64,000 nt of DNA, taken from an uncultured bacterium. Its GTDB lineage: Bacteria > Desulfobacterota_D > UBA1144 > Nemesobacterales > UBA2774. Location of the stretch: assembly GCA_963705505.1 (NCBI GenBank), contig CAVPJU010000001.1, forward strand, positions 224,001 to 288,000. Reading direction: 5' to 3'. Shown in pieces: positions 8,435 to 45,200 of the stretch. The position numbers were made by a program, and so were the translations under genes. Numbering within the stretch: position 1 is the first letter of the stretch; every line of letters begins with the position of its first letter. The notes under the pieces are model-generated. The model searched no databases and had not been told where the DNA came from. It saw only the letters and a program-made list of their open reading frames with translations.

Positions 8435-9802
8435 TCAACGCTTTTCGACCATCATCTTCATCCCGTATTTGGGGCGGATTGTGATTAGAGGGTCTGGCTC
8501 GACCTTGTGATTCGGAGCGAGGCGCATCTTCCATCGGGAGGCTATGGCGGCGATGAGCAGCACACCCTCCATCCAGGCGAACGGCTCACCGATACAGCGC
8601 CTCGGTCCCCCGCCGAAAGGGAAATAGGCGAATTTGGGCAGGGACGAATCGTCCTCCGCGCCCCACCTGTCGGGGTCGTATTTAAGCGGGTCGGGATAAA
8701 AGCGCGGGTCGCGGTGCATGACGTACTGGCTCATGAAAATATCCGTCCCCGAGGGAACTGTGTAACCCCCGACCTGATAATCGTTTATTACGCGCCGCGC
8801 GAGTGTCCACGCCGCCGGATAGAGCCTGAGCGTTTCCTTGAAGACATTATGCGTGTATGGGAGCCTGCCGAGGTCGTCAACCGACGGCGGGCGTCCGCCC
8901 AGGACCGTATCTATCTCCTCGTGCAGCTTCTTTTCCGCTTCAGGGTTCTGAGATAACAGGTACCATGTCCAAGTGAGTGTGTTGGCCATCGTTTCCTGCC
9001 CGGCGAGGAAGAGAGTAATTGCCTCGTCCCTCACCTGGCGGTCGCTCATACCCTTGCCGTCCCCTTCTTCGTCCTGGGCTTCGAGAAGCATCGTAAGCAG
9101 GTCGTCTTTGGCTCCCATGTCGGACCGTCTTTCTTCTATGAGTCTGTAGATGATGGTGTCGAGGCGTTTTATTGCTTCAATACCCCTTTTGTTTCCGGGG
9201 AGGGGCAGATAGTCGAGGATTTCCGAGAATGGAAAAACAAACCGGGTGAACAGGCCCACAAGGTCGGCCAGGGATTTTACGATCTCGTCTGATTCCGATT
9301 CCACGTCCGCGTCGAAGATCGTTTTGCTCACGACCGCGAGCGTGAGCTTAGTCATTTCCGTGTGTATATCGACTGTTTCTCCGCTCTGCCAGTCCCGGCC
9401 CGCGCGTGAGCCGTAGTCCGCCATCACATGACCGTATGTTTTAATCCTCTTGTGATGGAACACTGGCTGAATGATTCTTCTCTGTCTCAGGTGCGACTCC
9501 CCTTCGTTCGTGAGGAGCCCCTCTCCGAGTACGATCCTCGCGCGGTCGAGCGCGCGGCTCTTCGTGAAATTGCGGTTATGCGTCACGAGGACGTCTTTTA
9601 TGTGGTCGGGGTTATTTAAGAGGTAAACCCTCCGCGAGCCTACAGTGTAATAGACTATGTCCCCGTACTCCCGAGAGATTCTTGTGAGGAACCCGAGGGG
9701 GTCTCTGAAGTAGTCGATAAGCGAGCCGATATACGGCAGCCCTTTCGGTCCCGGGGGCAGCAATGGTCTCTTAATCCGGTACTCTTTATTCACGGCTTCC
9801 AT
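8435..9802 (-). CDS. Cytochrome P450
   Basis: PPGP start, I-helix AGQET, ExxR (ETLR), heme motif FGGGPRRCIG; ATG at 9802 preferred. Confidence 0.95.
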   Translation of the reverse strand: MEAVNKEYRIKRPLLPPGPKGLPYIGSLIDYFRDPLGFLTRISREYGDIVYYTVGSRRVYLLNNPDHIKDVLVTHNRNFTKSRALDRARIVLGEGLLTNEGESHLRQRRIIQPVFHHKRIKTYGHVMADYGSRAGRDWQSGETVDIHTEMTKLTLAVVSKTIFDADVESESDEIVKSLADLVGLFTRFVFPFSEILDYLPLPGNKRGIEAIKRLDTIIYRLIEERRSDMGAKDDLLTMLLEAQDEEGDGKGMSDRQVRDEAITLFLAGQETMANTLTWTWYLLSQNPEAEKKLHEEIDTVLGGRPPSVDDLGRLPYTHNVFKETLRLYPAAWTLARRVINDYQVGGYTVPSGTDIFMSQYVMHRDPRFYPDPLKYDPDRWGAEDDSSLPKFAYFPFGGGPRRCIGEPFAWMEGVLLIAAIASRWKMRLAPNHKVEPDPLITIRPKYGMKMMVEKR

Positions 9803-19023: not shown

Positions 19024-19851
19024 ATGGGCTTCTTCAAGCGTCGCACCATAATTGTCATCCTGATTCTCTTCTTTATCGCGATACAGCTTTTTTCGCTCGA
19101 TCTCAGGGAAAGGAACAGCAAGAACCCGGTATCTAAATTCGTCCTGACCCTGACTTATTACCCCCAGAAATTCGTTTTTACGATCACGGAGAAGGTCGTA
19201 GGCACATGGCGGGATTATATCGACCTCGTGCATGTGAAAGAGGAGAATAAGAGTCTCCGGGAAGAGCTTAACAGCCTTCGTCAGGAAAAGTTCGAGCTTG
19301 CCGAAATCAAGGCGCAGAACTCGAGACTAAAAAAACTTTTGCAGTTCAAAGATGAATCTGTTTACCCTGTGGTATCCGCGAACGTGATAGGGGCAAGTCC
19401 CTCCATGCTGCGCTCTCAGGTCGTCATAGTCGACAAGGGCAGTACGGACGGGATAACCGAGGGGATGCCCGTAGCCTCTTACGACGGGATCGTCGGGAGG
19501 ATCCTGCTTACGGGCGATAAGAGCTCGGAAGTGCTTTTGATCACGGACCCAGTGAGCGCCGTAGACGCTTACATCCACAGGACCCGCGCGAGAGGCATTG
19601 TAAAGGGGGTCGGGAACGGCTGTGAGATGGAATATATCGAAAACAAATCCGATGTCAGCGTCGGGGACAAGGTCATCTCGTCCGGGAAAGACGGTTTTTT
19701 CCCTAAAGGGGTTATAATCGGGACCGTTACCGGTATAAGCGCAAGCGGGAGTTTCATCAGCGCCGGGATTTCTCCGCACGTCGATCTTAACTCGCTTGAG
19801 GAGGTAGTAATAATACAAAAACCCGTAAACAATATGGTTTTAAATGAATAA
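19024..19851 (+). CDS. mreC: Rod shape-determining protein MreC
   Basis: N-terminal TM plus coiled coil, DKGSTDG, SG.DGFFPKG; operon position. Confidence 0.93.
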   Translation: MGFFKRRTIIVILILFFIAIQLFSLDLRERNSKNPVSKFVLTLTYYPQKFVFTITEKVVGTWRDYIDLVHVKEENKSLREELNSLRQEKFELAEIKAQNSRLKKLLQFKDESVYPVVSANVIGASPSMLRSQVVIVDKGSTDGITEGMPVASYDGIVGRILLTGDKSSEVLLITDPVSAVDAYIHRTRARGIVKGVGNGCEMEYIENKSDVSVGDKVISSGKDGFFPKGVIIGTVTGISASGSFISAGISPHVDLNSLEEVVIIQKPVNNMVLNE

Positions 19852-30714: not shown

Positions 30715-32535
30715 CTAAACCGCCAGATTCTTCAGAAGCCCCTTCAGTTTGGTAAGCGGCTCATTCAGAGAGTTTATGGAATCCACCCAGAAACCGGGTG
30801 ATTCGAGGTCCCTGCCTATGCTCCTCTTTGCCACGTTCTCAGCCGTGTCGGAGCCCGAGAGCCTGAGGAATTCCTCGTATTTCGGAAGGAATTCATTTCC
30901 TTCCCTTTTGAACATCGAGAACAGGCCGCGGCTCAGAAGGTAGCCGAACGTATACGGGAAGTTGTAGAAGGTTATGCCCGTTATATAGAAATGCAGCTTC
31001 GATGCCCAGAAATAGGGGTCTTCCCCTCCCTCCTCCAGCACGTCGCCGAATATTCTCCGCTGGGTTTCGGCCATCAGCTCTTTGAGCCTGCTGACGCTTA
31101 CCTCGCCCTTTCGTCTTTCTTCGTAGAAAGCCTTTTCAAACTCGTAACGGACCGGTATGTCCATCATATATATCGCTCCGTGGTTGATTTCCATGTCCAG
31201 CATCAGGGCTTTCTCCGCATCGTTTATGGACGGGTCATCCAGGACGCCCGCGGCCAATATCATCTCCCCGAAGGTGGACGCCGATTCGGCGAGGGTCATG
31301 GGGTAGAAATGCGAGTATGGGCGTATGTCGCTCATGACGTGGCTGTGAAAGGCGTGTCCCGCTTCATGGGCGAGCGTGAGCACGTCCCCCAGTGTCTCGT
31401 TGTACGTCATGAAGATTCTGGACTCTTTGGTGAGGAGGGACCCCGTACAGAAACCGCCTGGACGTTTACCATCGCGCGGCTCCCAATCGATCCACTTCTT
31501 TCTGTAAGCACCTTCCACGAACTTGCCGAGCCTGGGGTAAGAGGCGGAGAACGAGTTTTTAACCATCTTCTTCGCATCGCTCCACGTCAGTCTCTGCTTG
31601 GTCCTGAGGTCGAGAGGCGCGCCGAGGTCATACCATGCAATGCCGCCGCGGTTCATAGTCTCGGCCTTTAACCGGAGTATGCTTCTCGGAAGCTCGAGCT
31701 CTGAGTAAATAGCCTCGAACATTGCGTCGAGCGTTTTTCTGCTTATCGATGACTGAAAAAGTGCGACGTCGAGGAAATGGTCTATCCCCCTGTATCTGTT
31801 AAGGGTGAGACGGGTGCCAGCGATTGCATTTAACGCGGCGGCTGCCGTGTCTTCTATTCTCCGCCATGCCCTGTTTCCCCCCTCGAAGGCGGCTTTTCTT
31901 ATGTGTCTCTCGGGTTTTTCCATAAGCGACCGTCTCTGGGAGATCGGCAGAGTCTTGACCGTGCCGTCCGGATACTCCATTTCGAACTCGAGCTTGCTCG
32001 ATACCGTATCGTAGAGCCGTCCCCAGGCGCCGATACCGTCTACACCGAGGTCAGCCGCGAGTATTTCGTTCTCGGTATTCATTCTTTTCTGCGATTCGTG
32101 TCTTAGCCTGCCGAGGTAATATTTAGAGCTATTTAACGCCTTCCGTTCCGTGAACGATTCGAAGTCTTCCTCTGAGGCGTCTTTTACAGCTCTCATAAGC
32201 TCCACTTTCAGTTTTGAGAACTCGGCTCCCACGATGGACATTTCGGCCTCTTCCCTCAGGTATTCTTCGTTAAGCCCGTCAGCTGAGGACAGACAGCCGA
32301 TGTAAGAACTAAGGTGGGAATAGCGCGTCACCAGGTCCTCGTTACTGAGGAATATTTCTTCCCAGTCTCTTTGATTTTGATTATCGAGCGCTTGAAGGGA
32401 TGAGGCCCTTTCTTTTGTGTTCTGTATGTCTCTCTTGAGGTTTTCCTTGAACTCCTTCATTTCGGGACCGTCGAACTCGGGGAAATAGCTCGTTAAGTCC
32501 CAGTTCATTTTAGCAGTCGAATTCTTGTTCGGCAT
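30715..32535 (-). CDS. pepF: M3 family oligoendopeptidase F
   Basis: WDL, GKRPGGFC, HEAGH zinc motif, LAESAS, FYNFPY. Confidence 0.9.
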   Translation of the reverse strand: MPNKNSTAKMNWDLTSYFPEFDGPEMKEFKENLKRDIQNTKERASSLQALDNQNQRDWEEIFLSNEDLVTRYSHLSSYIGCLSSADGLNEEYLREEAEMSIVGAEFSKLKVELMRAVKDASEEDFESFTERKALNSSKYYLGRLRHESQKRMNTENEILAADLGVDGIGAWGRLYDTVSSKLEFEMEYPDGTVKTLPISQRRSLMEKPERHIRKAAFEGGNRAWRRIEDTAAAALNAIAGTRLTLNRYRGIDHFLDVALFQSSISRKTLDAMFEAIYSELELPRSILRLKAETMNRGGIAWYDLGAPLDLRTKQRLTWSDAKKMVKNSFSASYPRLGKFVEGAYRKKWIDWEPRDGKRPGGFCTGSLLTKESRIFMTYNETLGDVLTLAHEAGHAFHSHVMSDIRPYSHFYPMTLAESASTFGEMILAAGVLDDPSINDAEKALMLDMEINHGAIYMMDIPVRYEFEKAFYEERRKGEVSVSRLKELMAETQRRIFGDVLEEGGEDPYFWASKLHFYITGITFYNFPYTFGYLLSRGLFSMFKREGNEFLPKYEEFLRLSGSDTAENVAKRSIGRDLESPGFWVDSINSLNEPLTKLKGLLKNLAV

Positions 32536-32720
32536 TATTCCTCCAAATGGTTTAGGCAGTTATGAGGGCCGTTATGAAAATTACCCTGAAATATATCATA
32601 AGACAGCCGGGCATGTATTTTTTGTACCGGATTTTTGACGGGTTACTTTTTCTCTCTTTTCTTGACGCTCTTGGGATGATTCGGTTTTTAATCCGGATGC
32701 GCTGAATAAAAAATCCCGGG

Positions 32721-33542
32721 CTAAGAGAAAGCGCGGTCGAGCAGGTCTATTTGTTCAGCGGACAAGCTCCACCCCGAAGCCCCGCAGTTCTCTATAGTTC
32801 TGGCCACGCTGTCCGATTTGGGAATGGCAATGACGTTTTCGCGCGAGGTGCACCAGTTAAGCGCGACCTGCGCAGTCGTTCTTCCCGTCTCACGGGATAT
32901 GTCTTCGAGGACTCTGATTTTTTTAGACGCCATGAAGCGCGGTCTCGAGGCCAGATTGCCGTCATCGAGCGGCGTATATGCAAGGACGGTGATACGGTTC
33001 CTCTCACAGTAGGGGAGTAAATCCCTTTCGATCCCCCTCTCGTTGAGATTGTAAAGGACCTGATTCGAAGCTATGGGCGTGTTTCTGAGCGCCGCTTCCG
33101 CCTCCTCTAATTCGTCCAGATCGAAATTACTCAAGCCTATGAATCTCACGAGTCCCCTTTGGACGAGGGTCTCCATCGCGCGCATGGTTTCCCTTATCGG
33201 GTAAGATGAATTCGGCCAGTGGATTTGATAGAGGTCGATGTAGTCTGTGCCGAGCCTGGAGAGGCTTTCTTCCGCGGCTCGGAGCACGTCGTCGTAACCG
33301 AGATGCCTGCCCGATACTTTCGTCGCGATGAATACACGGTCCCTCGTCCCCTCGACAGCTTTACCGACTACTTCTTCAGTATTGTAACCCTCGGCGGTGT
33401 CTATCAGGCTCGCCCCGAGCGCTATCCCCTTGCGAAGAGGCTCTATGCCGCCCCTGTACCTCCAGGTCCCGAGCCCTATCTCAGGGATCATGACACCCGT
33501 ATTCCCAAGCTCTTTTAATTCCATCGGTTTCGTCTCACTCAA
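32721..33542 (-). CDS. Aldo/keto reductase
   Basis: GLGTW, IDTAEGY, IATKV, DLYQIHWP, GLSNF, IPKS. Confidence 0.93.
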   Translation of the reverse strand: MSETKPMELKELGNTGVMIPEIGLGTWRYRGGIEPLRKGIALGASLIDTAEGYNTEEVVGKAVEGTRDRVFIATKVSGRHLGYDDVLRAAEESLSRLGTDYIDLYQIHWPNSSYPIRETMRAMETLVQRGLVRFIGLSNFDLDELEEAEAALRNTPIASNQVLYNLNERGIERDLLPYCERNRITVLAYTPLDDGNLASRPRFMASKKIRVLEDISRETGRTTAQVALNWCTSRENVIAIPKSDSVARTIENCGASGWSLSAEQIDLLDRAFS

Positions 33543-33716
33543 GTTTAAAAGTGATGTAAAAGATTTATGAATAAGATAACAGATTTTGTAGCTTCATCAC
33601 CCCCCGGCGATTTCTTATTATCAAGCGGATGAAGGCTGAAAACGGAGTCTCATGAACTGCTTAACGGTTTCGGTAAAAGGAAAATCGGAGGACCTATACT
33701 TTATTCTCAAATAACC

Positions 33717-33744
33717 TTGCAACAATTTCAAAATATTGTAGATT
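33717..33744 (+). promoter_or_regulatory. Putative sigma70 tRNA promoter (second copy at 43970-43997)
   Basis: TTGCAA-16 bp-TAGATT, ending about 10 bp before the tRNA 5' end. Confidence 0.55.
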
Positions 33745-33753
33745 TAAATACCG

Positions 33754-33797
33754 CGGGGTGTAGCTCAGATTGGCTAGAGCGTTGCGTTCGGGACGCA
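33754..33797 (+). pseudogene. 5' half fragment of tRNA-Pro(CGG)
   Basis: Acceptor 5' strand, D arm and anticodon arm present; T arm and 3' end absent. Confidence 0.9.
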
Positions 33798-33865
33798 AAT
33801 TGTGAATTAGAAAAACTTCATTGTTATAGTATTTTAAGAAGATTTTTCAACCATATTTTCCTTCT

Positions 33866-33884
33866 TTCTAACCATATTCTAACC
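33866..33884 (+). repeat. Putative integrase arm-type site (left)
   Basis: TTCTAACCATATTCTAACC, near-identical to 43866-43884; partial third copy at 33846-33857. Confidence 0.7.
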
Positions 33885-33933
33885 CAAGACACTAGCTATA
33901 TGTCCAAATACTTCAAATCTTTGGAGGCGACAT

Positions 33934-35022
33934 ATGGCGAGTTTACAGCGTAAGAACGGGACGTATTGGGCGGTCTTTGCTGAAGGGGGTAAGCGAAAGT
34001 GGCTTAAGATCGGCGATGTTTCCAAGTCAAAGGCAAAAGCGATATTAAAAGAACTGGAAGCTGAACGGGCAAGAGATAGGCTGGACCTTCTTTATCTAAA
34101 AAAGATAAATTTTTACGAATTCGCGGAAATTTATTTGAGATACGTAAAAACGAACAAATCCGAAAGTTCCTATAAAAGGGAGGCTTACACCGTTAGAAAG
34201 TTGAAAGAGTTTTATGGAGATATTCCATTAAGAAAATTCGATACTCAGCTAGTTGAAAGTTATAAAACCAAGAGAGTTGAAGATGGGCTAAAAAATAAAA
34301 CAATCAACCGGGAACTTGAGATATTCAGACATCTGATGACAATTGCAAAAGATTCAGGGTATCTGTCAAAAGTACCGAAATTCAAAATGCTACCAGTAAA
34401 GGTGCCTCCGGTTAGATTTCTCTCAATTGACGAAGTCCATAAATTATTGGAGAACAGTACTCCCTGGTTGGAGCCTATGATAATTATTATGTTGAATTCT
34501 GGTATGCGTTTTTCCGAAGTTAAAAACCTGAAATTTGAGGATGTTGATTTTGATAAGAATATAATCTGCGTCAGATCCGCCAAGAACAGCAGCAACAGAT
34601 TAAGCTCTTTTACGGACTTCAGGGTAATACCCATGAATGAGGTTCTTAGGGATACATTGATATGGGCTAAGTCTTTTTATGTAGATCCTAAAACCCTGAT
34701 TATTAATAAACGGGATTCTCACCGGTTGAATTATGTTTTTTGTAAGCCTGATGGCAGACCAATTGGCAGTATAAGAACGAGCTTCACAAAAGCTTGCCGT
34801 AAGTCAGGCATTACAAATACCGATACATATATTCTCAGGCACACTTTTGCATCCCATCTGTTAATGAATGGCATTGATTTAGTTACGATTCAGAAACTTC
34901 TCGGCCATTCCTCAATTTCAACGACTATGATTTATTCTCATATTTCTGATAAACATAGGGCAGAGAGCGTAAAAGTACTTCCATGGAACAATTGTGTAAA
35001 AAATGTAGAGGAAAAGCTATAA
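33934..35022 (+). CDS. Tyrosine recombinase / phage-type integrase
   Basis: N-terminal arm-binding-like segment, TINRE core-binding motif, SGMR.SE, LRHTFASH, LLGHS, catalytic Tyr in TTMIY. Confidence 0.95.
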   Translation: MASLQRKNGTYWAVFAEGGKRKWLKIGDVSKSKAKAILKELEAERARDRLDLLYLKKINFYEFAEIYLRYVKTNKSESSYKREAYTVRKLKEFYGDIPLRKFDTQLVESYKTKRVEDGLKNKTINRELEIFRHLMTIAKDSGYLSKVPKFKMLPVKVPPVRFLSIDEVHKLLENSTPWLEPMIIIMLNSGMRFSEVKNLKFEDVDFDKNIICVRSAKNSSNRLSSFTDFRVIPMNEVLRDTLIWAKSFYVDPKTLIINKRDSHRLNYVFCKPDGRPIGSIRTSFTKACRKSGITNTDTYILRHTFASHLLMNGIDLVTIQKLLGHSSISTTMIYSHISDKHRAESVKVLPWNNCVKNVEEKL

Positions 35023-35137
35023 AGAACAACTAGTTGGCTTAATCTTCATATTCGAAAAATCCTTCCTATCAGTCGGTAATCAGGCTAACTTTCTGGAGAA
35101 ACCTCAAAGTACGGATAACAAAGTCTGAACTAAGAAT

Positions 35138-35168
35138 ATTGTCATAATTGAATGACAATTTTTGTCAT
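35138..35168. promoter_or_regulatory. Overlapping TGTCA/TGACA palindromes, putative enhancer-binding-protein site
   Basis: attgtcat-N6-atgacaat overlapping atgacaa-ttt-ttgtcat, about 120-150 bp upstream of a sigma54-like element. Confidence 0.5.
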
Positions 35169-35285
35169 TTCCGTCGTTACTCAAATAGCATTAAGTCGTG
35201 CTACTTTTCTAGTAATTTGAAGGAGTTAAATAATTGTTAACGATAATTCCGACTAGTATAGTTTATTATTGGCTTATAAATAAGA

Positions 35286-35301
35286 TGGCATGAATTTTGA
35301 T
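35286..35301 (+). promoter_or_regulatory. Sigma54-like promoter of the TPR gene
   Basis: TGGCATG-AATT-TTGAT; -24 GG is correct, -12 reads GA instead of GC. Confidence 0.45.
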
Positions 35302-35363
35302 ACTAAGTAAGAATACAATAAAATTCGTAAACTATCTGACAAATCATTCTTTGGAGTAAGTAT

Positions 35364-38300
35364 ATGTTTGAGACTCTCGATTCTGAGTTAAATGCTGTCA
35401 GTAGAAATAAAAGATTATTGCTTTCTGATCATGTGTTCTCATGCGTTGTAATACCTGGTGTTGATACATCTATAGAATTCATTAATTTATGTAATACAAT
35501 AAAACAGCATCTGTACCAAACGCGAATACAAGTTAATTTTTTGCCAGAAATAGATAAGCAAGCTGGATCATACGAGCAGCTATTCGATCAATTAGTTGAT
35601 AACTGCATTTTTGTTATTGCGATGAAAGGGGACTTTGAAAAGAGTTTATCATACGAGTATGGATATTTGAGAGGCATAAGAAAGCCAATTATTGTAATAA
35701 ATACCACATATAATCCAACACCTGCCGATACAAAACATGATAGAGTCAATCATGATAATTATGAATCTACTCATAAAGAGGTCTTGAATAAATTCATCTA
35801 TTACATTGACTTAGGTTCAGAATCTCAACATGATCTTCCGGATCAATTTATAAACAAATTCGATCAAATCCTCTTAGAACTAGTGGAAGGGTCTTTAATT
35901 AACTTCGATAAGATCATTAAAGGAAACCAAGAAGTACAGTTTAATGATATCAAATATCTGATAAGTCGTATTATAGACTATTATATATTGCGGAATGGAT
36001 ACGGTTTACATGAGATCGATGAGATATTTAAATCGATTGATAAATTAGATGCAAATCAACATAAGAATCTCCCTTCGTTCGTACTAAACTGCTTACTTGC
36101 TCTATCAATTGATTTATTGAGAGCACAAAATGATAAGAATCAAGTTCATGATATAGCAGAAAAGTGCATATCTATGTGTCAAAAAATATTGGATAATGAA
36201 AAAGATTTAGCATTTAAAGCAGTTATAGAGAAAAAGTTGGCTGATTTGCTGTTAATTTCCCCAGACCCGGATAATGAGGTTGGGAATCTTGAAAGAGCTG
36301 TAGATCTTTATAAAAAATCTAAAGAGTATTTAACAATAGATGACTATCCTCATTATTTAGTTTCAATAAATAATAATCTTGGTGTGGCGTTGAATGATTT
36401 ATTCCAAATTGTAGGAGAATCAAAGTATCTGAATGAAGCGAATGATTATCTTTCTAACCTGGTGGCAGATCAAATCTCTTCAAATTCCAATTCTAATTAT
36501 GCGTTAGTTAAATATAATCTTGGTATTACCAGGTTGGGGTTTGCTTCAGTGGTTAGTGCTCAATATGATTATTATGATGCACTTGAATGCTTCAATAGCT
36601 TTCTAATGGATTCTTTTTACCTCGATAATAGTGAAGAATTTTTGGATATTGCAATCAACATTGGGTCTATATATTTTACAATTGCTCAAGAGCAAAACGA
36701 TCAACTATGTTGCGAGAGATCAATAGGAGTATTTCAAAAAGTTCTAGGTTTATGCTCTACTCAAATTCATGAAATGGAGTACGGAATTATTAACCGCAGT
36801 CTCGGTGATATTTATAGCTTTCTTGACACATTAAGACCAGATAATATTGAAACGAAGCTGAATATTATTGGATTTTATGAAGAAGCTTTAAAAATATATA
36901 CACTAGATAAATTCCCAGATGAATATTGTTGTATAAGGTTCAAATTAGCAGATGCACTAAGTACACTTAAGCGTCGACACGATTTGGAAAGTGCGTCAGA
37001 AATCTTCAATCAACTTTTGAGTACTCCAATTCTTGAGTCTTACAACTACAATTATGCTCTTATTCAAAAGAAACTTGCCATCTTATACTTAAGGTTAGCC
37101 AAAATGGATATGAGTAAGAATTATCACTCTATGGCTATAGAGAGTTACGAAGGCGCATTGTCTCAATTCTCTTCAATGAAAGACGAATACGAGATTGCAG
37201 ATCTAAAAAAGTATTTGGGAGATTTGTACATTCTCGATGCGAAGAAGAAAAGTGATTTCTCTTTATATCTAAAAGCTACAGAGGCTTATCAAGATGCACT
37301 TAGTTATTTTACAAGAGATAAGTTCCCATTGGTTTTTGCCTCACTCAAGATGAAACTCGGTGATCTAAATATAATGATCGCAGAAAATCAGAATTCTATC
37401 GATGATTATAATGATGCTATTCGTGCTTATGAGGAATCTCTCAATATTTATAATTCTTATGAATTTCAAAAAGAATCATGGGAAGTGCATAAAAAGATTA
37501 GCGATACATATATGACCTTGGGAGACATCAAATCAAATTCACAATATCCAGATGATGCGATCAATTATTATACTGAGGCTCTAAAATTTCTAACAAATCA
37601 AAGCTCACCGATTGAAAAGGGGAATGTTCTGAGAAAACTAGGTAATGAGCATGTTCAATTTTCTAGAATTGTATACCGTACTCAAAATTTAAAACATGCT
37701 CTCGAATATTATGAGAAAGCCCTAATGTATTACAATCCTGACGAGTATCCATCCGAATATGAAGAGATAAGAATTAATATGGGAATGAATTTCAGGATAT
37801 TAGCAGTTCTTGAAAAAGAGAGGGGCAACTTGAAAAATGCAATCTCATTTTATGAGAGAGCTGCTGAGTTTATTTCAATTAACAACAATCCAAATAAATA
37901 CGCTTCACTGATGGTCGCAATTGGATCCATATACAAGCAATTATCGCAGATTGAAAATGAAGTAGTTAATAGCAAAAAAGCTATCGAGTATTATATCAAT
38001 GGATTAGTTGTTTATAATCCACAAGATCATCCTCTTGAGCATGGTTCTTTACAAAAATATCTAGGGTTAGCATATATAGATATAGCCGAGAAAGAGAATT
38101 ATCTCGAAAATATAAGAAATGCATATAAAGCATTTGAAGCATCTCAAAAAATATATTCAGTCGAAGACAATCCCGAAGATTTGTTATTTGTGGAGAGTAA
38201 ATTGTCGGAACTGAGTAGAAAGATTTCAAATGGAGATAACAGCACTTCAAATCAAAATGTGCTTCAGGATGCAAGCTATGATAATTTTATGACGCTTGAT

Positions 38301-40085
38301 CCAATCAATTCTACTCTCAACAATCAAGAAATTGCTGAACAAATAATGACACTTGACCAACCGGCTGAATTTGAAGATATAGACTCCAATAGAGAGGGCT
38401 TGAAAGAAGTAAGAGTTGAAACAGACGAATTCGGTCCATTAAATTTGGAAATAGACTTTACTAATAACGAATTAAATGACGATTCAGAATCTATTGAACG
38501 TCTAGATCAGCTCATCAGCGAGACATCTCCAGTGGAATCGCCAAAGCTTCATGCATACCTAAATTATAAGATTGGCAATGCCTATCATAATATTGGCAAA
38601 TCTCACGGTTCCTCACAAAATTACAAAGAAGCAATAAGATATTATGCTCAAGCCTTAAAATATTATACATATGAGGAATACCCATATGAATATGCTTGTG
38701 TAAATGGCGAACTTGCAACTACTTATAAATATCTAGGTGACTCATCTGGCGATTTAATGAACTATGAGGTTGCAATAGAATTATACAAGGAGTCATTAGG
38801 AGTAATTAAGATTGATGAGCATCCCATTGAATTCGGGAATTATAACCTAAATATGGGACTCATTTTTAGTGAATTTAGCAGAATTCTTCAACTTAAAAAG
38901 TATCATGATAATGCGATACATGCATATAATGAAGCATTAAAGGTTTTTGAATCGAGCGAAAATCCTTCTGAGTATGGATTAATTCAGATGAAGCTAGGTT
39001 CCGTTTATAGCATGCTTGCTGATTATGAAAGTTACTCCTATAACTGTCTAAAATCTGCTGAAGCTTACAAGCAAGCACTAACCGTATACGGATTCGAGAA
39101 TTTCCCGAATGAATTTGCAGAGATTCAAAAAAAACTGGGCATCTTATATTTGGACTCTGGTTTAAATGATCTGGACAATAATAATTTCTTGTTATCTGTA
39201 AAATCATTCGAAGAAGCACTAAAACACTATAACTTAGAAAATTACCCGGCGGATTATGGATTAATAAAAATAAAAGAAGCTAAATCTTATGAATATTTAT
39301 CCAAAGCTTCCGAGGAATCATTTTATTTGAGACAAAGTATCGATGCTTATAAAGAGGCAATTAAATATTATACCCATGAGACTTATCCAGATGTATTTGC
39401 TTCGATAGCATTAAGTTTAGGCGATGTTTATCAGAATCACGGTAAACTAGAAAACACAGACATAGATCGAAGAATTGCAATTGAATACTATAAGCAGGCT
39501 CTTATGGTTTATAATTCAATTGAGTTTCCTCTAGAGTATGCAACTACAGAATATAACATAGGAATGGCATACTTAATGCTTGCAGATTCTGAGCAACTAA
39601 AAGATAATATCATTAAGGCGATAAATTCCTTCAAAGCATCATCAAAAGTCTATTCGAAAATAGGGCTATCTGATCAGTATGGAAGTTGTGAGAATAATCT
39701 TGGCATAGCGTATATGAAAATTGCAAATGAACGGGAAAGTAGTACTTATCTGTTGTTAGCTCAAGAATGTTTTGAGAAGGCGATTAAAGTCAGGACTTGT
39801 GAAAAACAGCCGCTCGAATTTGCCAATACGCAGTTTAATTTAGGGGCCTTATTCATGATACTCTATAAGAACGAGAAAAAAACAGAATATGCCGAAAGGT
39901 CTGTACAAGCTTATGAAAAGGCTCTGCAAATCTACATCGAGGATAAATTTCCGGTTGAATACAACTCAATACAAAATAATCTTTCTTGGATGAATCAAAC
40001 ACTTGCTAAAGAAAAAGATGAAAACAAGTCTTATGATAATAGCTGGGCTTACCTACGAAAGTCTACTCCGAATAATTTAAATTAA
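35364..40085 (+). CDS. Large TPR-repeat protein with N-terminal nucleoside deoxyribosyltransferase/TIR-like domain
   Basis: Many long TPR-like units (AI.YY..AL..Y....FP..YA..Q.NLG.AY) in two blocks split by an acidic linker; N-terminal CIFVIA...SYEYGYLRGIRKPIIVI. Confidence 0.75.
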   Translation: MFETLDSELNAVSRNKRLLLSDHVFSCVVIPGVDTSIEFINLCNTIKQHLYQTRIQVNFLPEIDKQAGSYEQLFDQLVDNCIFVIAMKGDFEKSLSYEYGYLRGIRKPIIVINTTYNPTPADTKHDRVNHDNYESTHKEVLNKFIYYIDLGSESQHDLPDQFINKFDQILLELVEGSLINFDKIIKGNQEVQFNDIKYLISRIIDYYILRNGYGLHEIDEIFKSIDKLDANQHKNLPSFVLNCLLALSIDLLRAQNDKNQVHDIAEKCISMCQKILDNEKDLAFKAVIEKKLADLLLISPDPDNEVGNLERAVDLYKKSKEYLTIDDYPHYLVSINNNLGVALNDLFQIVGESKYLNEANDYLSNLVADQISSNSNSNYALVKYNLGITRLGFASVVSAQYDYYDALECFNSFLMDSFYLDNSEEFLDIAINIGSIYFTIAQEQNDQLCCERSIGVFQKVLGLCSTQIHEMEYGIINRSLGDIYSFLDTLRPDNIETKLNIIGFYEEALKIYTLDKFPDEYCCIRFKLADALSTLKRRHDLESASEIFNQLLSTPILESYNYNYALIQKKLAILYLRLAKMDMSKNYHSMAIESYEGALSQFSSMKDEYEIADLKKYLGDLYILDAKKKSDFSLYLKATEAYQDALSYFTRDKFPLVFASLKMKLGDLNIMIAENQNSIDDYNDAIRAYEESLNIYNSYEFQKESWEVHKKISDTYMTLGDIKSNSQYPDDAINYYTEALKFLTNQSSPIEKGNVLRKLGNEHVQFSRIVYRTQNLKHALEYYEKALMYYNPDEYPSEYEEIRINMGMNFRILAVLEKERGNLKNAISFYERAAEFISINNNPNKYASLMVAIGSIYKQLSQIENEVVNSKKAIEYYINGLVVYNPQDHPLEHGSLQKYLGLAYIDIAEKENYLENIRNAYKAFEASQKIYSVEDNPEDLLFVESKLSELSRKISNGDNSTSNQNVLQDASYDNFMTLDPINSTLNNQEIAEQIMTLDQPAEFEDIDSNREGLKEVRVETDEFGPLNLEIDFTNNELNDDSESIERLDQLISETSPVESPKLHAYLNYKIGNAYHNIGKSHGSSQNYKEAIRYYAQALKYYTYEEYPYEYACVNGELATTYKYLGDSSGDLMNYEVAIELYKESLGVIKIDEHPIEFGNYNLNMGLIFSEFSRILQLKKYHDNAIHAYNEALKVFESSENPSEYGLIQMKLGSVYSMLADYESYSYNCLKSAEAYKQALTVYGFENFPNEFAEIQKKLGILYLDSGLNDLDNNNFLLSVKSFEEALKHYNLENYPADYGLIKIKEAKSYEYLSKASEESFYLRQSIDAYKEAIKYYTHETYPDVFASIALSLGDVYQNHGKLENTDIDRRIAIEYYKQALMVYNSIEFPLEYATTEYNIGMAYLMLADSEQLKDNIIKAINSFKASSKVYSKIGLSDQYGSCENNLGIAYMKIANERESSTYLLLAQECFEKAIKVRTCEKQPLEFANTQFNLGALFMILYKNEKKTEYAERSVQAYEKALQIYIEDKFPVEYNSIQNNLSWMNQTLAKEKDENKSYDNSWAYLRKSTPNNLN

Positions 40086-40225
40086 CTTATATAGACGTCG
40101 AGTCTCTGAATCTCGCTGATCGGTTATGTGTTTGCCGCAGTTGACTCCTATACATAAAGGAGAAGCCTCTTCAGCTTCATTGGAATTTTCAAAGGCGACA
40201 CAGGTTTTCTATGTCTTCTCTATAT

Positions 40226-40287
40226 CTACATTTGCTACACCATCTACACCAAGCACTTAAAGCATGTAGAAGATGTAGGAAATGTAG
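40226..40287. repeat. Inverted iteron-like array
   Basis: CTACA at 40226, 40235, 40244 facing TGTAG at 40265, 40274, 40283 (9-bp period on each side). Confidence 0.65.
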
Positions 40288-40371
40288 GAAAAGAGCAAGA
40301 CCGTCAAAGATATGTGGGACGAATTGTTGTGAATCAGGGGGTAGGAGAATAACATTCTAGACCGACCAGCT

Positions 40372-41580
40372 TTAATTGTTGACCCCACTGATATTTGTTT
40401 TATCGTAGGGGTGTTTCAAGTAGTTGCCGGTTTTAAGGAGATTGTAGATGGCCTCTGTAGCAACCTTATGACCGTAAGCGTTCCAGTGCATTCCCTTACG
40501 GTAGTATGTTCTTCGCCAAGTTCCTTTGAAAGCAGATGCCATGTCATAACAAGTAATGTCGAGTTTCATGCAAATCGGTTTAATTTTCTCCTGATATGGT
40601 GTGGAGTCGTATAGATGTTCAATTTCAATTTTGGAAGGGATGAAAAAAATAACTAGTTTGGCTCCCTTCATTTCGACGGCTTTATCAAGCTCTTCAAAAA
40701 TTCTAGACGTTAACTTCAAGTCTTGCTGAGCTTCAGGATATGAATCGGGATCATTCTGAGTATTGAAGTCTTCGACCACGTTTTGGTGATAATCGTAGAG
40801 TTCAGAATACTTGGTTTTTAACCGTGTATACATATCGTGTAGAAAGTATGATTTAAATAAGACCTTTTTAACGTACTCTTTCCAGTCGTTTACCGGGGTG
40901 GCGGGTCTATTGGTTTCGTTCCATGCGGGTGTTTTAGGAACAGGCACACCCGTGAGGATGATCTTGTTCCCGGCAATTTCGAATTTTGGCTTCGGTTTCT
41001 GATAAGGATTCTTGCCGTCGTACTCATATGAATTATTTTCCTCGACATCATTTTCACAAATCATCAATACTACCAGCTTGATTTGTCCCTGATATCGCCA
41101 GTTTTCAAAAGCTAATAGTTCCTGGTCATTACCATAACCGCTCATAGAAAGATTGAATATTTCATAATCTGGCAGCTTGTCCCTAAGTAGATTAATGAAC
41201 ATTTCATCGAACTCAACCTCATAACCATATGTGAAAGAATCTCCGAGGAATAGAATTGCAGGTTTGCTACTTATACCTTTATGTTCTATATCTCTGAAAC
41301 CGTAGGTGTTGTGCTCGACCAGGAAGCTGTTGTTTTCAGTAGTCATCCTGGCTTTACCGCCCGGTACTCCCTTCCAACCTAGTACGGGGTCGTATTCAGA
41401 CAAATTTCCGTGCAGCCTCATATTGATCTCGTATGCGCTGAAGTACGGGAATGGGCTGAATATGCGGTAACCAATCTCGATAACTAGGAACGTTAGTATT
41501 AATGAACATAGAAAAAGTATTATTTTCAGAGGTAAGAGGCGTTGATTCAGATCCGAGGATTGTCGGTTGTGATTTTTCAT
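40372..41580 (-). CDS. Membrane-anchored SGNH/GDSL hydrolase-family protein
   Basis: N-terminal TM (EIGYR), DPVLGW, N..GFRD, LGDSFTYG, NLSMSGYG, END, HWNAYGH. Confidence 0.85.
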   Translation of the reverse strand: MKNHNRQSSDLNQRLLPLKIILFLCSLILTFLVIEIGYRIFSPFPYFSAYEINMRLHGNLSEYDPVLGWKGVPGGKARMTTENNSFLVEHNTYGFRDIEHKGISSKPAILFLGDSFTYGYEVEFDEMFINLLRDKLPDYEIFNLSMSGYGNDQELLAFENWRYQGQIKLVVLMICENDVEENNSYEYDGKNPYQKPKPKFEIAGNKIILTGVPVPKTPAWNETNRPATPVNDWKEYVKKVLFKSYFLHDMYTRLKTKYSELYDYHQNVVEDFNTQNDPDSYPEAQQDLKLTSRIFEELDKAVEMKGAKLVIFFIPSKIEIEHLYDSTPYQEKIKPICMKLDITCYDMASAFKGTWRRTYYRKGMHWNAYGHKVATEAIYNLLKTGNYLKHPYDKTNISGVNN

Positions 41581-41870
41581 ACGAATTCTCGATGGGTAAA
41601 GATACTTAATAATGAAGAGCGCAACCAATTTCCAGAATATAAAAAAACAATTCTGAAGACATAACAGTTCAGCTATAAATCAGAATTTCAAGAATTATTA
41701 AAATATGCTTAATATTGTATTTGTATTTTAATTTGATTGTCCTAACTATCTATGTTCAATGCTCTTTTTATATCGATTTTAGAGATATAAAGCCTTATTA
41801 TTCAAGAATTTGATAGATTTGCATATACAAAGCACTTTTTTCTATATAATTATTCTTACTTATAAGAATT

Positions 41871-43082
41871 ATGAAGAAGCCACCTGCAGTAGTTATTAAG
41901 CTGGATTGCAGAACAGGATTACAAACTGCAAGAATATTATCCAGATATCAAATCCCCGTAATAGGAATTGTAGATGATCCTGCGAATTTTTGCGGTAGAA
42001 CCAATTCATGTAAGGAAATTTTAGTTACTAACACATCAGATGAAAGGCTTGTTGATACATTATTGAGTTTAGCTTTAAAAATACAAGACAAAGCCGTACT
42101 TTTTCCTATCAGCGATCAAAGTGTTCAGGTTGTATCAGATAACAGGGAGAGGCTCGGGGAATTTTATCATTTTGTAATACCTGATGGTAATATTCTCACG
42201 CTTTTCATGAACAAGACAAATTTTTACAAATATGCACAAAAGAAAAGTCTCTCGATACCCAACACTTATTTCCCTAGAACGAAAGCGGAACTTGATGAAG
42301 TAGCAGACAGAATTCAATTTCCTTGTATAGTTAAGCCAGCGATAAGAACTGGAACGGATATTTGGTTCGATCATTTTAGTAACAAGGTAATTAAAATAAA
42401 CAACCCGCAAGAATTATATGATGTATTCGATAGATGCTTGATCGCTTCCGAGAATATAATTGTTCAGGATTGGATAAAAGGAAATGACTCTAACTTGTTA
42501 TCTAGTATTTTTTACTATGATTCAAACTATAATCCCGTAATAACTTTTACTTCACGCAAACTAAGGCAGTGGCCCATAGAAAATGGTGATGCATCTTTGG
42601 CTATAGAATGCAGAAATGATGAAGTCTTGAATCAAACCACTGAAGTACTTAGCAGCGTTAAGTTTAAAGGACTAGGCTCGATAGAATTTAAAATGGACGA
42701 TTCGAGCGGTAGATATTTTATTATAGAACCGAACATTGGAAGACCCGTCACTAGAATCGGTTTGGTAGAAAAAGCAGGAGTCGAAATTCTCTATACGATG
42801 TATTGTGATGCATTGGGCCTGGCGTTGCCTTCTAAAACAAAACAGCAATTTAAAGGCATAAAATGGATTTCAATTAATAACGATATTCGAGCAGCTATGG
42901 CTTATTACAAAAATGGCGAGCTAACTATTTGGGAGTGGTTTAAATCGATTCAGGGTGTTAAGGCATTTGCGGATTTATCCGTTCGGGATCCCATGCCCTT
43001 TTTAATTGAAACATTGTATCCTTTGAAAAAATTTCTCTGGCTATTAAGGCAAAAATTAGCAAGGGCCATATTTAGAATCTAA
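41871..43082 (+). CDS. ATP-grasp carboxylate-amine ligase (D-aspartate ligase-like)
   Basis: NK..FY, FPCIVKP, IVQDWI.G, RKLRQWP, IEFKMD, IEPNIGR. Confidence 0.8.
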   Translation: MKKPPAVVIKLDCRTGLQTARILSRYQIPVIGIVDDPANFCGRTNSCKEILVTNTSDERLVDTLLSLALKIQDKAVLFPISDQSVQVVSDNRERLGEFYHFVIPDGNILTLFMNKTNFYKYAQKKSLSIPNTYFPRTKAELDEVADRIQFPCIVKPAIRTGTDIWFDHFSNKVIKINNPQELYDVFDRCLIASENIIVQDWIKGNDSNLLSSIFYYDSNYNPVITFTSRKLRQWPIENGDASLAIECRNDEVLNQTTEVLSSVKFKGLGSIEFKMDDSSGRYFIIEPNIGRPVTRIGLVEKAGVEILYTMYCDALGLALPSKTKQQFKGIKWISINNDIRAAMAYYKNGELTIWEWFKSIQGVKAFADLSVRDPMPFLIETLYPLKKFLWLLRQKLARAIFRI

Positions 43083-43448
43083 AATAAATATGTGTTAAGC
43101 TCGAATAAATATTCCACCCCACCAGAACCTGAGATATGAAAACTTATTATCTCTGTTATATCAATATTGCAACAATTCCTACACCATCTACACTGCATCA
43201 ACGTTAGTCAGAGATTGAGTTTTCATGTTTTAACAGTTTCTCAAAAGTCTTCCCGGTCTCAATATAGGTTCGTGACAATTGATTGATTACCCAAAATTGT
43301 AATTGCATTTTATGAACCTTCATGCTCACTTCGATGTCAACATCTAATATCGCTTGATCCCGCCTACTTAGAAGAATGTATGTTTTGTTTACTTAAAGTC
43401 ATACGAGTTGAAAACATACAAAATCATGTACTTTTCTATACTTTTTCA

Positions 43449-43495
43449 TTGACATTTGAGGTAGTAAGCGGTACCGTATCTAACAGTGTTAGATA
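43449..43495 (+). promoter_or_regulatory. Putative sigma70 promoter with a perfect palindrome over the start codon
   Basis: TTGACA-17 bp-TACCGT, then TATCTAACA-G-TGTTAGATA (43477-43495) spanning the GTG at 43486. Confidence 0.55.
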
Positions 43496-43776
43496 AATCA
43501 CTTTTAAAGCAAATTAAATCTCTCAATCTAAAAGAACTACGAGAGCTTCATGGCTACATCCAATCTCATCTACCTCCGTCTGTTGTCTACCAGCAAAAAC
43601 CAGTAAAATGCGGATGTAAACTATGCAAAGAAGGTGGAAAAGGTCACGGTCTTTATTGGTATGCCTACTTCACTTATCAGAATAAAACTCACTGTATTTA
43701 TGTTGGAAAAGAAAAGAGAGAAATAGATCCGTTAGAAGAGCTTGAGAAAAAGAAAACTAGACGGAGGTCTAAATAA
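43486..43776 (+). CDS. Small basic Cys/His protein (DUF6788-like), probably zinc- and DNA-binding
   Basis: KCGCKLCKEGGKGHGLYWY...K....YVGK pattern, Lys/Arg-rich tail. Confidence 0.65.
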   Translation: MLDKSLLKQIKSLNLKELRELHGYIQSHLPPSVVYQQKPVKCGCKLCKEGGKGHGLYWYAYFTYQNKTHCIYVGKEKREIDPLEELEKKKTRRRSK

Positions 43777-43865
43777 TGGGAGTCTTTAAATGGAACAATA
43801 GAGTCAAACTTTACATATTGCACTGATCTGATTATAATTTTTCATGAGAATAGACATATAGTTAG

Positions 43866-43884
43866 TTCTAACCATGTTCTAACG
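43866..43884 (+). repeat. Putative integrase arm-type site (right)
   Basis: TTCTAACCATGTTCTAACG, 17/19 identical to 33866-33884. Confidence 0.7.
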
Positions 43885-43952
43885 GATATGTAAGAATTAA
43901 GGGAAAAACCAGTGTCCTTAACGAACTTACAAGAATGCCAATTTGAGTTCTT

Positions 43953-44051
43953 TTTATTCTCAAATAACCTTGCAACAATTTCAAAATATTGTAGATTTAA
44001 ATACCTGCGGGGTGTAGCTCAGATTGGCTAGAGCGTTGCGTTCGGGACGCA
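43953..44051 (+). repeat. attR: duplicated promoter plus 5' half that rebuilds the intact tRNA
   Basis: Direct repeat of 33700-33797. Confidence 0.93.
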
Positions 44052-44085
44052 GAGGCCGCCGGTTCAAGTCCGGCCACCCCGACCA
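44008..44085 (+). tRNA. tRNA-Pro (anticodon CGG)
   Basis: CGGGGTG/CACCCCG acceptor stem, anticodon loop TT-CGG-GA, GGTTCAAGTCC T arm, encoded CCA. Confidence 0.97.
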
Positions 44086-44108
44086 TTAATTTCAAGTGCT
44101 CTCGCCTT

Positions 44109-45200
44109 TTAGCGGGAGAATACGACCATAAGGATTTCCGCCAGGATCAAAATAATAATGACCAGTTCCAGAGTTTGGCTTTGGGTCGTTCGCACCCGGT
44201 CGGTTAGCAACTGATATAGGCTGGCGATAATGTCGAGTTTGCGCGAAATGGCGCTCTCCCAATCTTGCAGATAGAGTCTTCGAGCGGCGACGGCATGAAC
44301 TCGGGCCAGATAGAGATCCCCAATCAGCTTGAGGGCATTATCAACCCTTTCGGCTAGCAACAGCGATTCGAGTCGTAGTTCGGCCAGTGCTTGAATCGCT
44401 TTCCGATTTGGCGTGCGCAACGGCACTAACCAATCTCTGTGTTTGAACGAGAGTCCTTGATAATCGCCGATGCGCCGATCCAGTTGCTCGTCCATATAGC
44501 GCGCTTCTAATAACTCCACGTTGAGTAATTCTAAGACATTGACGGTGTCTTGATAATCACGATCATAGACAAGCGCCGCATTCCAATCCACAATGACTAG
44601 ATCGTTCTTGTAGTAAGAGAGCCTTTGATTCAGCGCCTCCTCTTGCTGCTCTAAACTGAACGGCTGAGTTTCAAACCGCAGCACCTGTGCGATGAGTGAG
44701 CTGTGCTGCGCCAGCAAATCGGCGGCGGACCAGGGTTGGTCAAATTCCTCTATGACGAACAAATAATAATCTTCTACCAGAGGCGACAATTCAGGCCGGA
44801 TTACTGCCGAGCGAATTTCTTCCAGAAATACTTGAATCTGTTCCTTCGCCTGAGCTTCCAGATTACGGTCATGAAGCGTTCGACTGAGCGGTTGCAAATC
44901 TGCCAATGACAGGGCTTGCTGGCCGGTGGGCAGTGACCATTGATAAGCTATGCTGGCAGCGCCGAAATCAAAGACTGTGACCTGCGCTCGCCCTGCTTCA
45001 GAAAGAATGGGTCTTATCTCTCCCAAATTCACGACGAGAGGCGGCTTTGAATACTGTATGAAAGTGGGGGTCTGTTTTTTGGGCGAGAGCGGCTGCACAG
45101 GTGCTGATGAAGGCAACTTGCTAAGCTGCTCGAGCGACACCTCAAAGCCAATGTCAAAGGCAAAAAGAGCTATTACTCTGCCGTTCAAGATCTTCGTCAT
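44109..45200 (-). CDS. DUF155/RMD1-like membrane protein
   Basis: NVELLEARY.D, GDLYLAR, helical C-terminal region ending in LELVIIILILAEI. Confidence 0.6.
   Translation of the reverse strand: MTKILNGRVIALFAFDIGFEVSLEQLSKLPSSAPVQPLSPKKQTPTFIQYSKPPLVVNLGEIRPILSEAGRAQVTVFDFGAASIAYQWSLPTGQQALSLADLQPLSRTLHDRNLEAQAKEQIQVFLEEIRSAVIRPELSPLVEDYYLFVIEEFDQPWSAADLLAQHSSLIAQVLRFETQPFSLEQQEEALNQRLSYYKNDLVIVDWNAALVYDRDYQDTVNVLELLNVELLEARYMDEQLDRRIGDYQGLSFKHRDWLVPLRTPNRKAIQALAELRLESLLLAERVDNALKLIGDLYLARVHAVAARRLYLQDWESAISRKLDIIASLYQLLTDRVRTTQSQTLELVIIILILAEILMVVFSR

Follow-up and report, generated by a model that had tools for sequence, protein, structure and literature searches.

A putative integrative island carrying the upstream region and 5′ half of tRNA-Pro(CGG) in an uncultured member of the Nemesobacterales

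Which half of a tRNA gene is carried by an integrating element, and which half is left behind in the chromosome, is the question raised by a locus on contig CAVPJU010000001.1 of an uncultured bacterium (Desulfobacterota_D, Nemesobacterales; assembly GCA_963705505.1). In the stretch of 64,000 nucleotides (nt) analysed here, which comprises positions 224,001 to 288,000 of the forward strand and is referred to below as the window (numbered from its first letter), a tyrosine integrase gene (int) stands right behind a fragment with the 5′ part of tRNA-Pro(CGG), and the intact tRNA is found at the other end of an AT-richer segment, with a GC content of 30–41% between the two copies versus 46–56% outside. 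The genome that holds the window is labelled G000, and the other G-numbers are labels of the genomes compared with it.

This locus is very probably an integrative island, 10,254 bp in size and site-specific, which would use its tyrosine integrase to recombine in the tRNA-Pro(CGG) anticodon stem-loop with the rarer of the two polarities. According to the proposed mechanism, the attachment site of the element (attP) would carry the upstream promoter region of the tRNA together with its nt 1–44, instead of the 3′ part. Because attP would hold the 5′ part, integration would strand the host's own upstream region and 5′ half on the left, where they would form attL immediately before int, and the element-borne copy would be joined to the native 3′ half at the right end, forming attR and the working gene.

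The repeat at both ends and the tRNA upstream region

The features at the core of the island are the following:

33700..33797, + strand: putative attL, displaced upstream region (54 nt) and tRNA nt 1–44, delimited by the repeat and directly adjoining host DNA alignable to G004 and G009
33787..33793, + strand: anticodon-loop heptamer TTCGGGA, left copy; predicted crossover (overlap) region, from the repeat boundaries
33934..35022, + strand: tyrosine integrase of 362 amino acids (aa) (PF00589, E 1.1e-29; PF13102; phrog_1 integrase, E 1.7e-66)
43953..44051, + strand: putative attR, element-side copy of the upstream region and tRNA nt 1–44, delimited by the repeat
44008..44085, + strand: intact tRNA-Pro(CGG), sole copy in the genome (ARAGORN)

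A repeat search of the window shows that 33700–33752 is identical to 43953–44005 (53 nt, 100% identity) and 33753–33797 to 44007–44051 (45 nt, 100% identity). A single extra T at 44006 shifts the register between both copies, which otherwise match exactly over 98 nt, and a chance origin of such a near-perfect repeat is ruled out by far. Since the tRNA starts at 44008, the repeat comprises tRNA nt 1–44 and, ahead of them, upstream DNA that measures 54 nt in the left copy and 55 nt in the right one. The tRNA fragment (33754–33797) is positioned upstream of the intact tRNA, on the same strand, and 136 nt separate it from the open reading frame (ORF) of the integrase. tRNA-Pro(CGG) is the only tRNA detected by ARAGORN in the window, and the 44 tRNAs of G000 include one each of Pro CGG, GGG, and UGG. 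Identity between both copies ends 4 nt past the anticodon loop TTCGGGA (33787–33793 and 44041–44047), which in the left copy is flanked symmetrically, as TTGCG-TTCGGGA-CGCAA, and the spacing of equivalent loop positions (44041 minus 33787) is 10,254 nt. These results bear out an original prediction, made from the letters of the window, in all its positions: it had described the repeat as 54 bp of upstream DNA plus tRNA nt 1–44, placed the truncated copy on the left beside the integrase and the intact tRNA on the right, pointed out the inverted repeat TTGCG/CGCAA around the left loop, and given the excised circle a size of 10,254 bp.

A −35/−10 pair had also been proposed in the upstream DNA. 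The corresponding hexamers, TTGCAA (33717–33722) and TAGATT (33739–33744), are separated by a 16-nt spacer and score 8/12, one match short of the 9/12 from which the promoter scan lists a site, so that the pair is missing from its output. However, the bases of both hexamers are unchanged in 11 of 11 aligned copies (9 genomes, 3 genera), and it is for this conservation rather than for its score that the pair is accepted as the probable promoter of the tRNA. In the same region of the alignment (window 33717–33744), the upstream boxes CCTTGC and ATATTGTAGATTTA of tRNA-Pro are invariant across the three genera, which suggests that this promoter may be unusually constrained in the family. Another, strong promoter-like site (43810–43838, + strand; TTTACA-17-TATAAT, 11/12) lies in the element DNA next to the right copy, aimed at attR and the tRNA; in the excised circle, it would point at int too.

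The tRNA-Pro(CGG) locus in related genomes

An empty site, where the aldo/keto reductase gene of the left flank would be directly followed by tRNA-Pro, had been suggested as a check, and it is seen in three of the eight same-genus loci compared. In G009, G002, and G004, the reductase, the upstream block, and the tRNA are contiguous, and window positions 31000–33797 and 43953–44094 map onto one unbroken stretch. The comparison comprises the tRNA-Pro loci of 8 same-genus genomes and leaves aside G001 and G005, where the search matched only other tRNA genes (E about 1e-10). G003 and G008 have 1.6 kb and 0.5 kb, respectively, of other DNA between the reductase and the tRNA, G007 holds a related element at the site, and G006 a tandem remnant. 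The occurrence of the island is, in summary, sporadic among relatives, and the empty site is precise.

The same layout of 5′ fragment, integrase, cargo, and intact tRNA is found at the same tRNA in four other genomes (G014, G055, G006, and G007). In G014, a single-contig genome, the repeat measures 48 nt, from position −1 to tRNA nt 47; the int gene, whose product is 45% identical, starts 183 nt past the fragment, the intact tRNA follows 6.1 kb on, and a usual-type island occupies the other side of the tRNA. G055, from a different family of the same order, has the fragment at 108342–108381, int at 108538, and the intact tRNA at 131544, which makes a 23.2-kb element. Contig C100 of G006 bears a decayed copy of the window element, then the repeat, and then the P′ arm (the element DNA between the left copy of the repeat and int) and integrase of a G014-type element, an order that reads as a tandem array and that is situated at the contig end. 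G007 keeps attL, the P′ arm (83.6% identical), and the first 23 nt of int, from where it jumps to the gene for a tetratricopeptide repeat (TPR) protein (96.1% identical over 5145 nt; L030 5320–10458), followed by the P arm next to the right copy (73–75%) and the intact tRNA. A relative with the duplication, but lacking integrase and cargo, had been named by the original prediction as an observation that would speak against it. G007 resembles such a relative in form only, because the start of int and the cargo gene are retained, which makes it a deletion derivative.

The boundaries of all these elements converge on the anticodon. Taken as BLAST boundaries, the 5′-type repeats end at tRNA nt 41 (G055), 44 (G000 and G007), 47 (G014), and 49 (G006), and in the 3′ fragments of this tRNA the first base is nt 31 (G009, G003, and two in G014), 37 (G004 and G007), or 46 (G002), the loop being nt 34–40. 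The five 5′-type elements and the seven 3′-type fragments overlap only at the anticodon stem-loop, with strand-exchange points that are not readable from the sequence. One site can be common to all of them only if the exchange takes place in or beside the loop, and we therefore infer a crossover in the anticodon stem-loop, of the anticodon-centred class (site class A) to which 2083 of the 3919 islands in Islander belong (PMC4383910). The proposed crossover within TTCGGGA itself fits every repeat boundary, and its exact point would lie somewhere in these 7 nt.

If the exchange occurs at the loop, everything to the left of the loop in the intact gene would come from the element, which agrees with the earlier suggestion that the element carries its own copy of the tRNA promoter region. 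This suggestion is supported by G055 and G014, where the upstream sequence of the intact tRNA runs into element DNA. In G055, both copies match between −26 and +41, apart from one mismatch, and lose this similarity farther upstream; the sequence in front of the intact tRNA passes into an arm that holds a series of TCTAAC repeats. Agreement between the G014 copies starts no earlier than −1. Ahead of the displaced copy stands an upstream region of the family type (TTGCAA...TAAATT), as in G021, and the intact gene has a different one, continuous with an arm-type motif (one TCTAAC-type pair). The displaced copy in G014 is thus probably the native one, a claim weakened by unplaced DNA, 6.3 kb long, that separates this copy from the host flank.

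Two further observations concern upstream DNA at this site. G018 (L068; G018:C58, about 5214–5400) holds the second upstream type, together with about 90 nt similar to the P arm of the G014 element that adjoin the host flank directly, and may represent an element deleted down to its promoter end, with the tRNA left on an element-derived promoter. In addition, G003, G008, and G007 share a segment of 430–500 bp (79–80% mutual identity; L027 4560–4994, L031 4813–5317, and L030 4543–5042) between the reductase and the tRNA, which G000 does not have. The last 40–70 nt of this segment resemble the P arms of elements, and, likewise, the last 40–70 nt of the G000 P arm resemble the DNA upstream of the tRNA in G003, G008, and G007, and not that of G000 itself. 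This segment may derive from an old element, or the captured upstream DNA may have come from it.

Islands of the usual polarity, or relics of them, occupy the other side of the same gene in relatives. In G009, G002, G003, G004, and G007, the tRNA is followed by 0.5–2.7 kb and then by a 3′ tRNA fragment, ahead of the gene that corresponds to the 363-aa ORF of the right flank, and in G000 this 3′ side is empty. As judged from these sequences, the tRNA-Pro(CGG) gene is a two-sided insertion hotspot. On the 3′ side of the same tRNA-Pro, G014 has two 3′ fragments and a 30%-identical integrase (G014:C1:77160-109880).

Integrase relatives, arms, and cargo

The integrase clade was defined as the 24 loci found at E ≤ 1e-60 among 120 genomes of the class, and the DNA before int was examined with ARAGORN and with BLAST against the 44 tRNAs of G000. 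The usual layout, with co-directional tRNA sequence before int, is present in 13 of the 24 (intact tRNA in 11; 3′ part in two, namely L042, in a tandem array, and L081, truncated where its contig stops). In five, int is preceded by a divergent tRNA or 5′ fragment, in three by a co-directional 5′ fragment, every one of them of tRNA-Pro(CGG), and the remaining three show no recognisable tRNA sequence at this position. The check for fragments at the far end covered only three loci of the usual layout (L058, L060, and L062) and, of the divergent ones, L064 of G011.

L064 (G011:C1:271400-291300) encodes a 38%-identical integrase divergently upstream of tRNA-Arg(CCT), and has a second integrase on the 3′ side of the tRNA. 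Its two copies of a perfect 126-nt repeat (8502–8627 and 19025–19150) lie 10.5 kb apart in a literally reversed layout. This repeat is made of 87 upstream nt plus tRNA-Arg nt 1–39, ending at the last base of the anticodon loop.

The usual anticodon-loop islands of the clade (at tRNA-Thr, Arg, Glu, Leu, and Met; L039–L043, L070, and others) have integrases 37–48% identical to that of the window. Like the window element, they place int 100–200 nt from tRNA sequence and co-directional with it, hold paired arm-type repeats before int, and have repeats that start at the stem-loop. However, unlike it, they carry the 3′ tRNA part, and consequently the intact gene stands beside int, with the island downstream. 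A maximum-likelihood tree was built from 26 integrases (the 24 clade members, the partial G006 protein, and one 30%-identical long-branch outgroup). The G014a and G006 integrases fall within a clade of usual-layout integrases at tRNA-Thr (support 100/99), and those of G000 and G055 are found elsewhere, so that the layout is not a trait of a single integrase lineage: three layouts exist within one integrase clade. A contig scan for closer integrase relatives in named genomes gave only three loci, with 30–40% identity.

The remaining features of the locus are these:

32721..33542, − strand: aldo/keto reductase gene, host flank (PF00248, E 4.1e-54)
33798..33933, + strand: P′ arm, with paired arm-type repeat TTCTAACCATATTCTAAC at 33866–33883 (motif count in the window)
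35364..40085, + strand: main cargo, TPR-repeat protein of 1573 aa (matches to TPR families only)
40372..41628, − strand: cargo, SGNH/GDSL-type hydrolase (PF13472, PF16822)
41871..43082, + strand: cargo, ATP-grasp-like enzyme (PF02786, E 1.7e-5; NF009406, carbamoyl-phosphate-synthase-like, E 6.6e-15, under its cut-off)
43486..43776, + strand: 96-aa ORF with a CxxC...GHGLYWY motif (sub-threshold DUF6788 match, E 0.032)
43809..43952, + strand: P arm, with arm-type repeat TTCTAACCATGTTCTAAC at 43866–43883 and the promoter-like site 43810–43838 (motif count, promoter scan)
44109..45200, − strand: 363-aa ORF without a match in family searches, host flank; the 3′ side of the tRNA is unoccupied in this genome

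The sequence TTCTAACCATRTTCTAAC occurs exactly twice in the 64-kb window (33866 and 43866), once per arm, where none would be expected. Lambda-type integrases bind arm-type sites, which serve as the basis for reading paired repeats of this kind, and by likeness to them the paired TCTAAC repeats are predicted to be arm-type integrase sites. Most of the 24 clade members show two short direct repeats with a spacing of 11 bp, located 42–102 nt before int, whose sequence differs by lineage (TCTAAC, GCCTAAC, TTCTAG, or CAAAGAAT). The P arm of the window is 87.6% identical to the arm on contig C100 of G006, which likewise abuts the repeat. The integrase itself is full length, and the catalytic R, xxR, H, and the Tyr nucleophile are aligned with those of its relatives.

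With regard to cargo function, searches against PADLOC, NCBIfam, and PHROGs yielded no match over the respective cut-off, whether for the TPR protein, the hydrolase, and the ATP-grasp protein or for the 96-aa ORF. Among the library matches of the TPR protein, there is no clear defence or phage family; its N-terminal ~580 aa have no family match, and the leads from a protein atlas (TIR and DUF4062) score at most 0.88. The 96-aa ORF adjoins the P arm, a position that would suit a recombination directionality factor and that is its only link to such a role.

The part of the island with the integrase and the TPR gene recurs in metagenomes. The best public run holds 0.37 of the sampled words of the island, and none holds more. 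Contigs of four runs, from four studies, carry 33753–40169 and the flanks, and not 40170–43800, with about 90% identity to the window in int and 96–99% in the TPR gene. Given that the TPR gene is 96–99% identical in these four runs and 96.1% in G007, versus about 80% for the flanks, the int-TPR module seems, by these identities, to be spreading recently. In one contig of run X2, from a relative with about 85% identity (21 differences over 141 nt), the reductase and the tRNA are separated by 183 other letters.

Alternative explanations and relation to known islands

Several observations weigh against a mobile, integrase-driven island. Tyr replaces the His of the HxxR motif in the aligned integrase, a position where substitutions are tolerated in tyrosine recombinases, and no excisionase was recognised in the element. 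In the assembled contigs, which are the only metagenomic material covered, none from the four runs bridges attL or attR, no back-joint is listed, and neither an excised circle nor a strain-level empty site was seen. The block 40170–43706 is absent from G007 and from the contigs of the four runs, and is found in no other genome or run. Furthermore, both repeat copies are identical within G000 and within G007, but differ between the two genomes at non-conserved positions, and the TPR genes of these genomes are 96% identical, with host flanks only about 80% identical. Such host-matched repeat copies are not what would be expected if the element had simply arrived recently and brought a foreign attP; gene conversion, a conspecific donor, or a long residence followed by exchange of the cargo gene are candidates to account for them.

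These last results could also be understood if the island were an old and immobile relic, which would have integrated by the same mechanism into an ancestor shared by G000 and G007, with vertical inheritance since then, gene conversion keeping its two repeat copies identical, and a recent exchange of only the TPR gene by homologous recombination. We regard this as possible, but rather unlikely. It agrees with a divergence of the arms between G000 and G007 that is near flank level (83.6% for P′ and 73–75% for P, versus 80–88% for the flanks) next to a TPR gene at 96.1%, with the lineage-specific variants that both repeat copies carry in each genome, and with the decayed remnants that are common at the site (G006, G007, and G018). 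Nevertheless, an intact integrase ORF, perfect arm repeats, clean empty sites in G009, G002, and G004, and an int-TPR module with 90–99% identity in metagenome contigs (four runs, four studies) all argue against a relic.

An insertion of the Campbell type, by host homologous recombination through the 98-nt homology and with the integrase as an incidental passenger, appears very improbable. Identity does span all 98 nt, including non-conserved positions, as this process would predict; yet the end of the repeat is always a few nt from the anticodon loop in five genomes in which its upstream extent varies from 1 to about 55 nt, the integrase follows the fragment in four of the five and its start is retained in the fifth, and the arm-type repeats are conserved. 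Still harder to sustain is an assembly artefact, in which a metagenome-assembled contig would have been misjoined through the repeated tRNA segment. The genome is indeed a 10-contig draft, and no contig of the four runs spans a junction, but attL-type junctions (G007, G014, and G055) and attR-type junctions (G007, G006, G014, and G055) both recur in independent assemblies of relatives. A transposase-like target-site duplication was considered as well and was rejected, because a repeat of 98 nt greatly exceeds the length that such a mechanism would produce and because all the elements have their right boundary at the anticodon loop.

Site-specific integration at the anticodon stem-loop, with the 5′ part of the tRNA in attP, has precedents. 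In an element described by Zhao and Williams in 2002, recombination reportedly involves the 5′-distal part of a tRNA gene and a reversed orientation of the target gene, to judge by the title of that study. The window element would share the recombination with the 5′-distal part, but its fragment, intact tRNA, and int are all on the + strand, unlike the reversed orientation that the title implies. A literally reversed layout, with the tRNA divergent from int, corresponds to 5 of the 24 clade loci, among which only that of G011b is verified, by its 126-nt repeat. Phrase searches of the literature for 5′-side tRNA integration returned no match, probably because primes are not searchable.

In a citing passage of PMC6563490, the 5′-side polarity is credited to Zhao and Williams 2002, plus four archaeal studies. 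In Table 1 of the Islander paper (Hudson, Lau and Williams 2015, PMC4383910), 3760 of the 3919 islands have a 3′ fragment and the other 159 a 5′ fragment, and the Islander filter expects 5′ fragments upstream (PMC4383910). As they are outlined in those parts of the paper, the 5′-fragment islands encode a tyrosine integrase and are bounded by an intact tDNA and, upstream at the opposite end, by a 5′ fragment in the same orientation; their site is anticodon-centred. The window element has the same integrase type and ends, and probably the same kind of site, so that it shows no difference in kind from that outline and is a further example in an uncultured lineage. The mirror-image arrangement, which had been put forward as a novelty, is consequently not new: it is rare, and already catalogued as a minority class. 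What is specific here is the position of int beside the displaced fragment and co-directional with the tRNA, the existence of three layouts in one clade, and the host-matched repeat variants.

It is a doubtful, though more far-reaching, proposition that the succession of 5′ fragment, co-directional int, cargo, and intact tRNA represents a configuration of its own, in which the core site keeps its usual orientation and the tRNA half in attP has been swapped. If so, this configuration would have arisen or been passed on several times at tRNA-Pro(CGG) in one clade, through the exchange of att modules that share arm-type sites. int would lie directly behind the tRNA promoter in both the integrated and the excised state, so that a strong promoter of the host type would drive expression of the integrase. 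Once such an element had decayed, the tRNA would depend for good on a promoter derived from it, of which G018, G003, and G008 may be examples.

The known picture of tRNA-directed integration is unchanged by the site-specific island described here, given that its class was already catalogued. The locus adds a well-delimited example, together with four sister elements, of a minority polarity of integration into tRNA genes, in an uncultured lineage that is poorly studied. The three layouts among close relatives of its integrase bear on how the polarity of att sites evolves, as well as on island-finding software that expects 3′ fragments.

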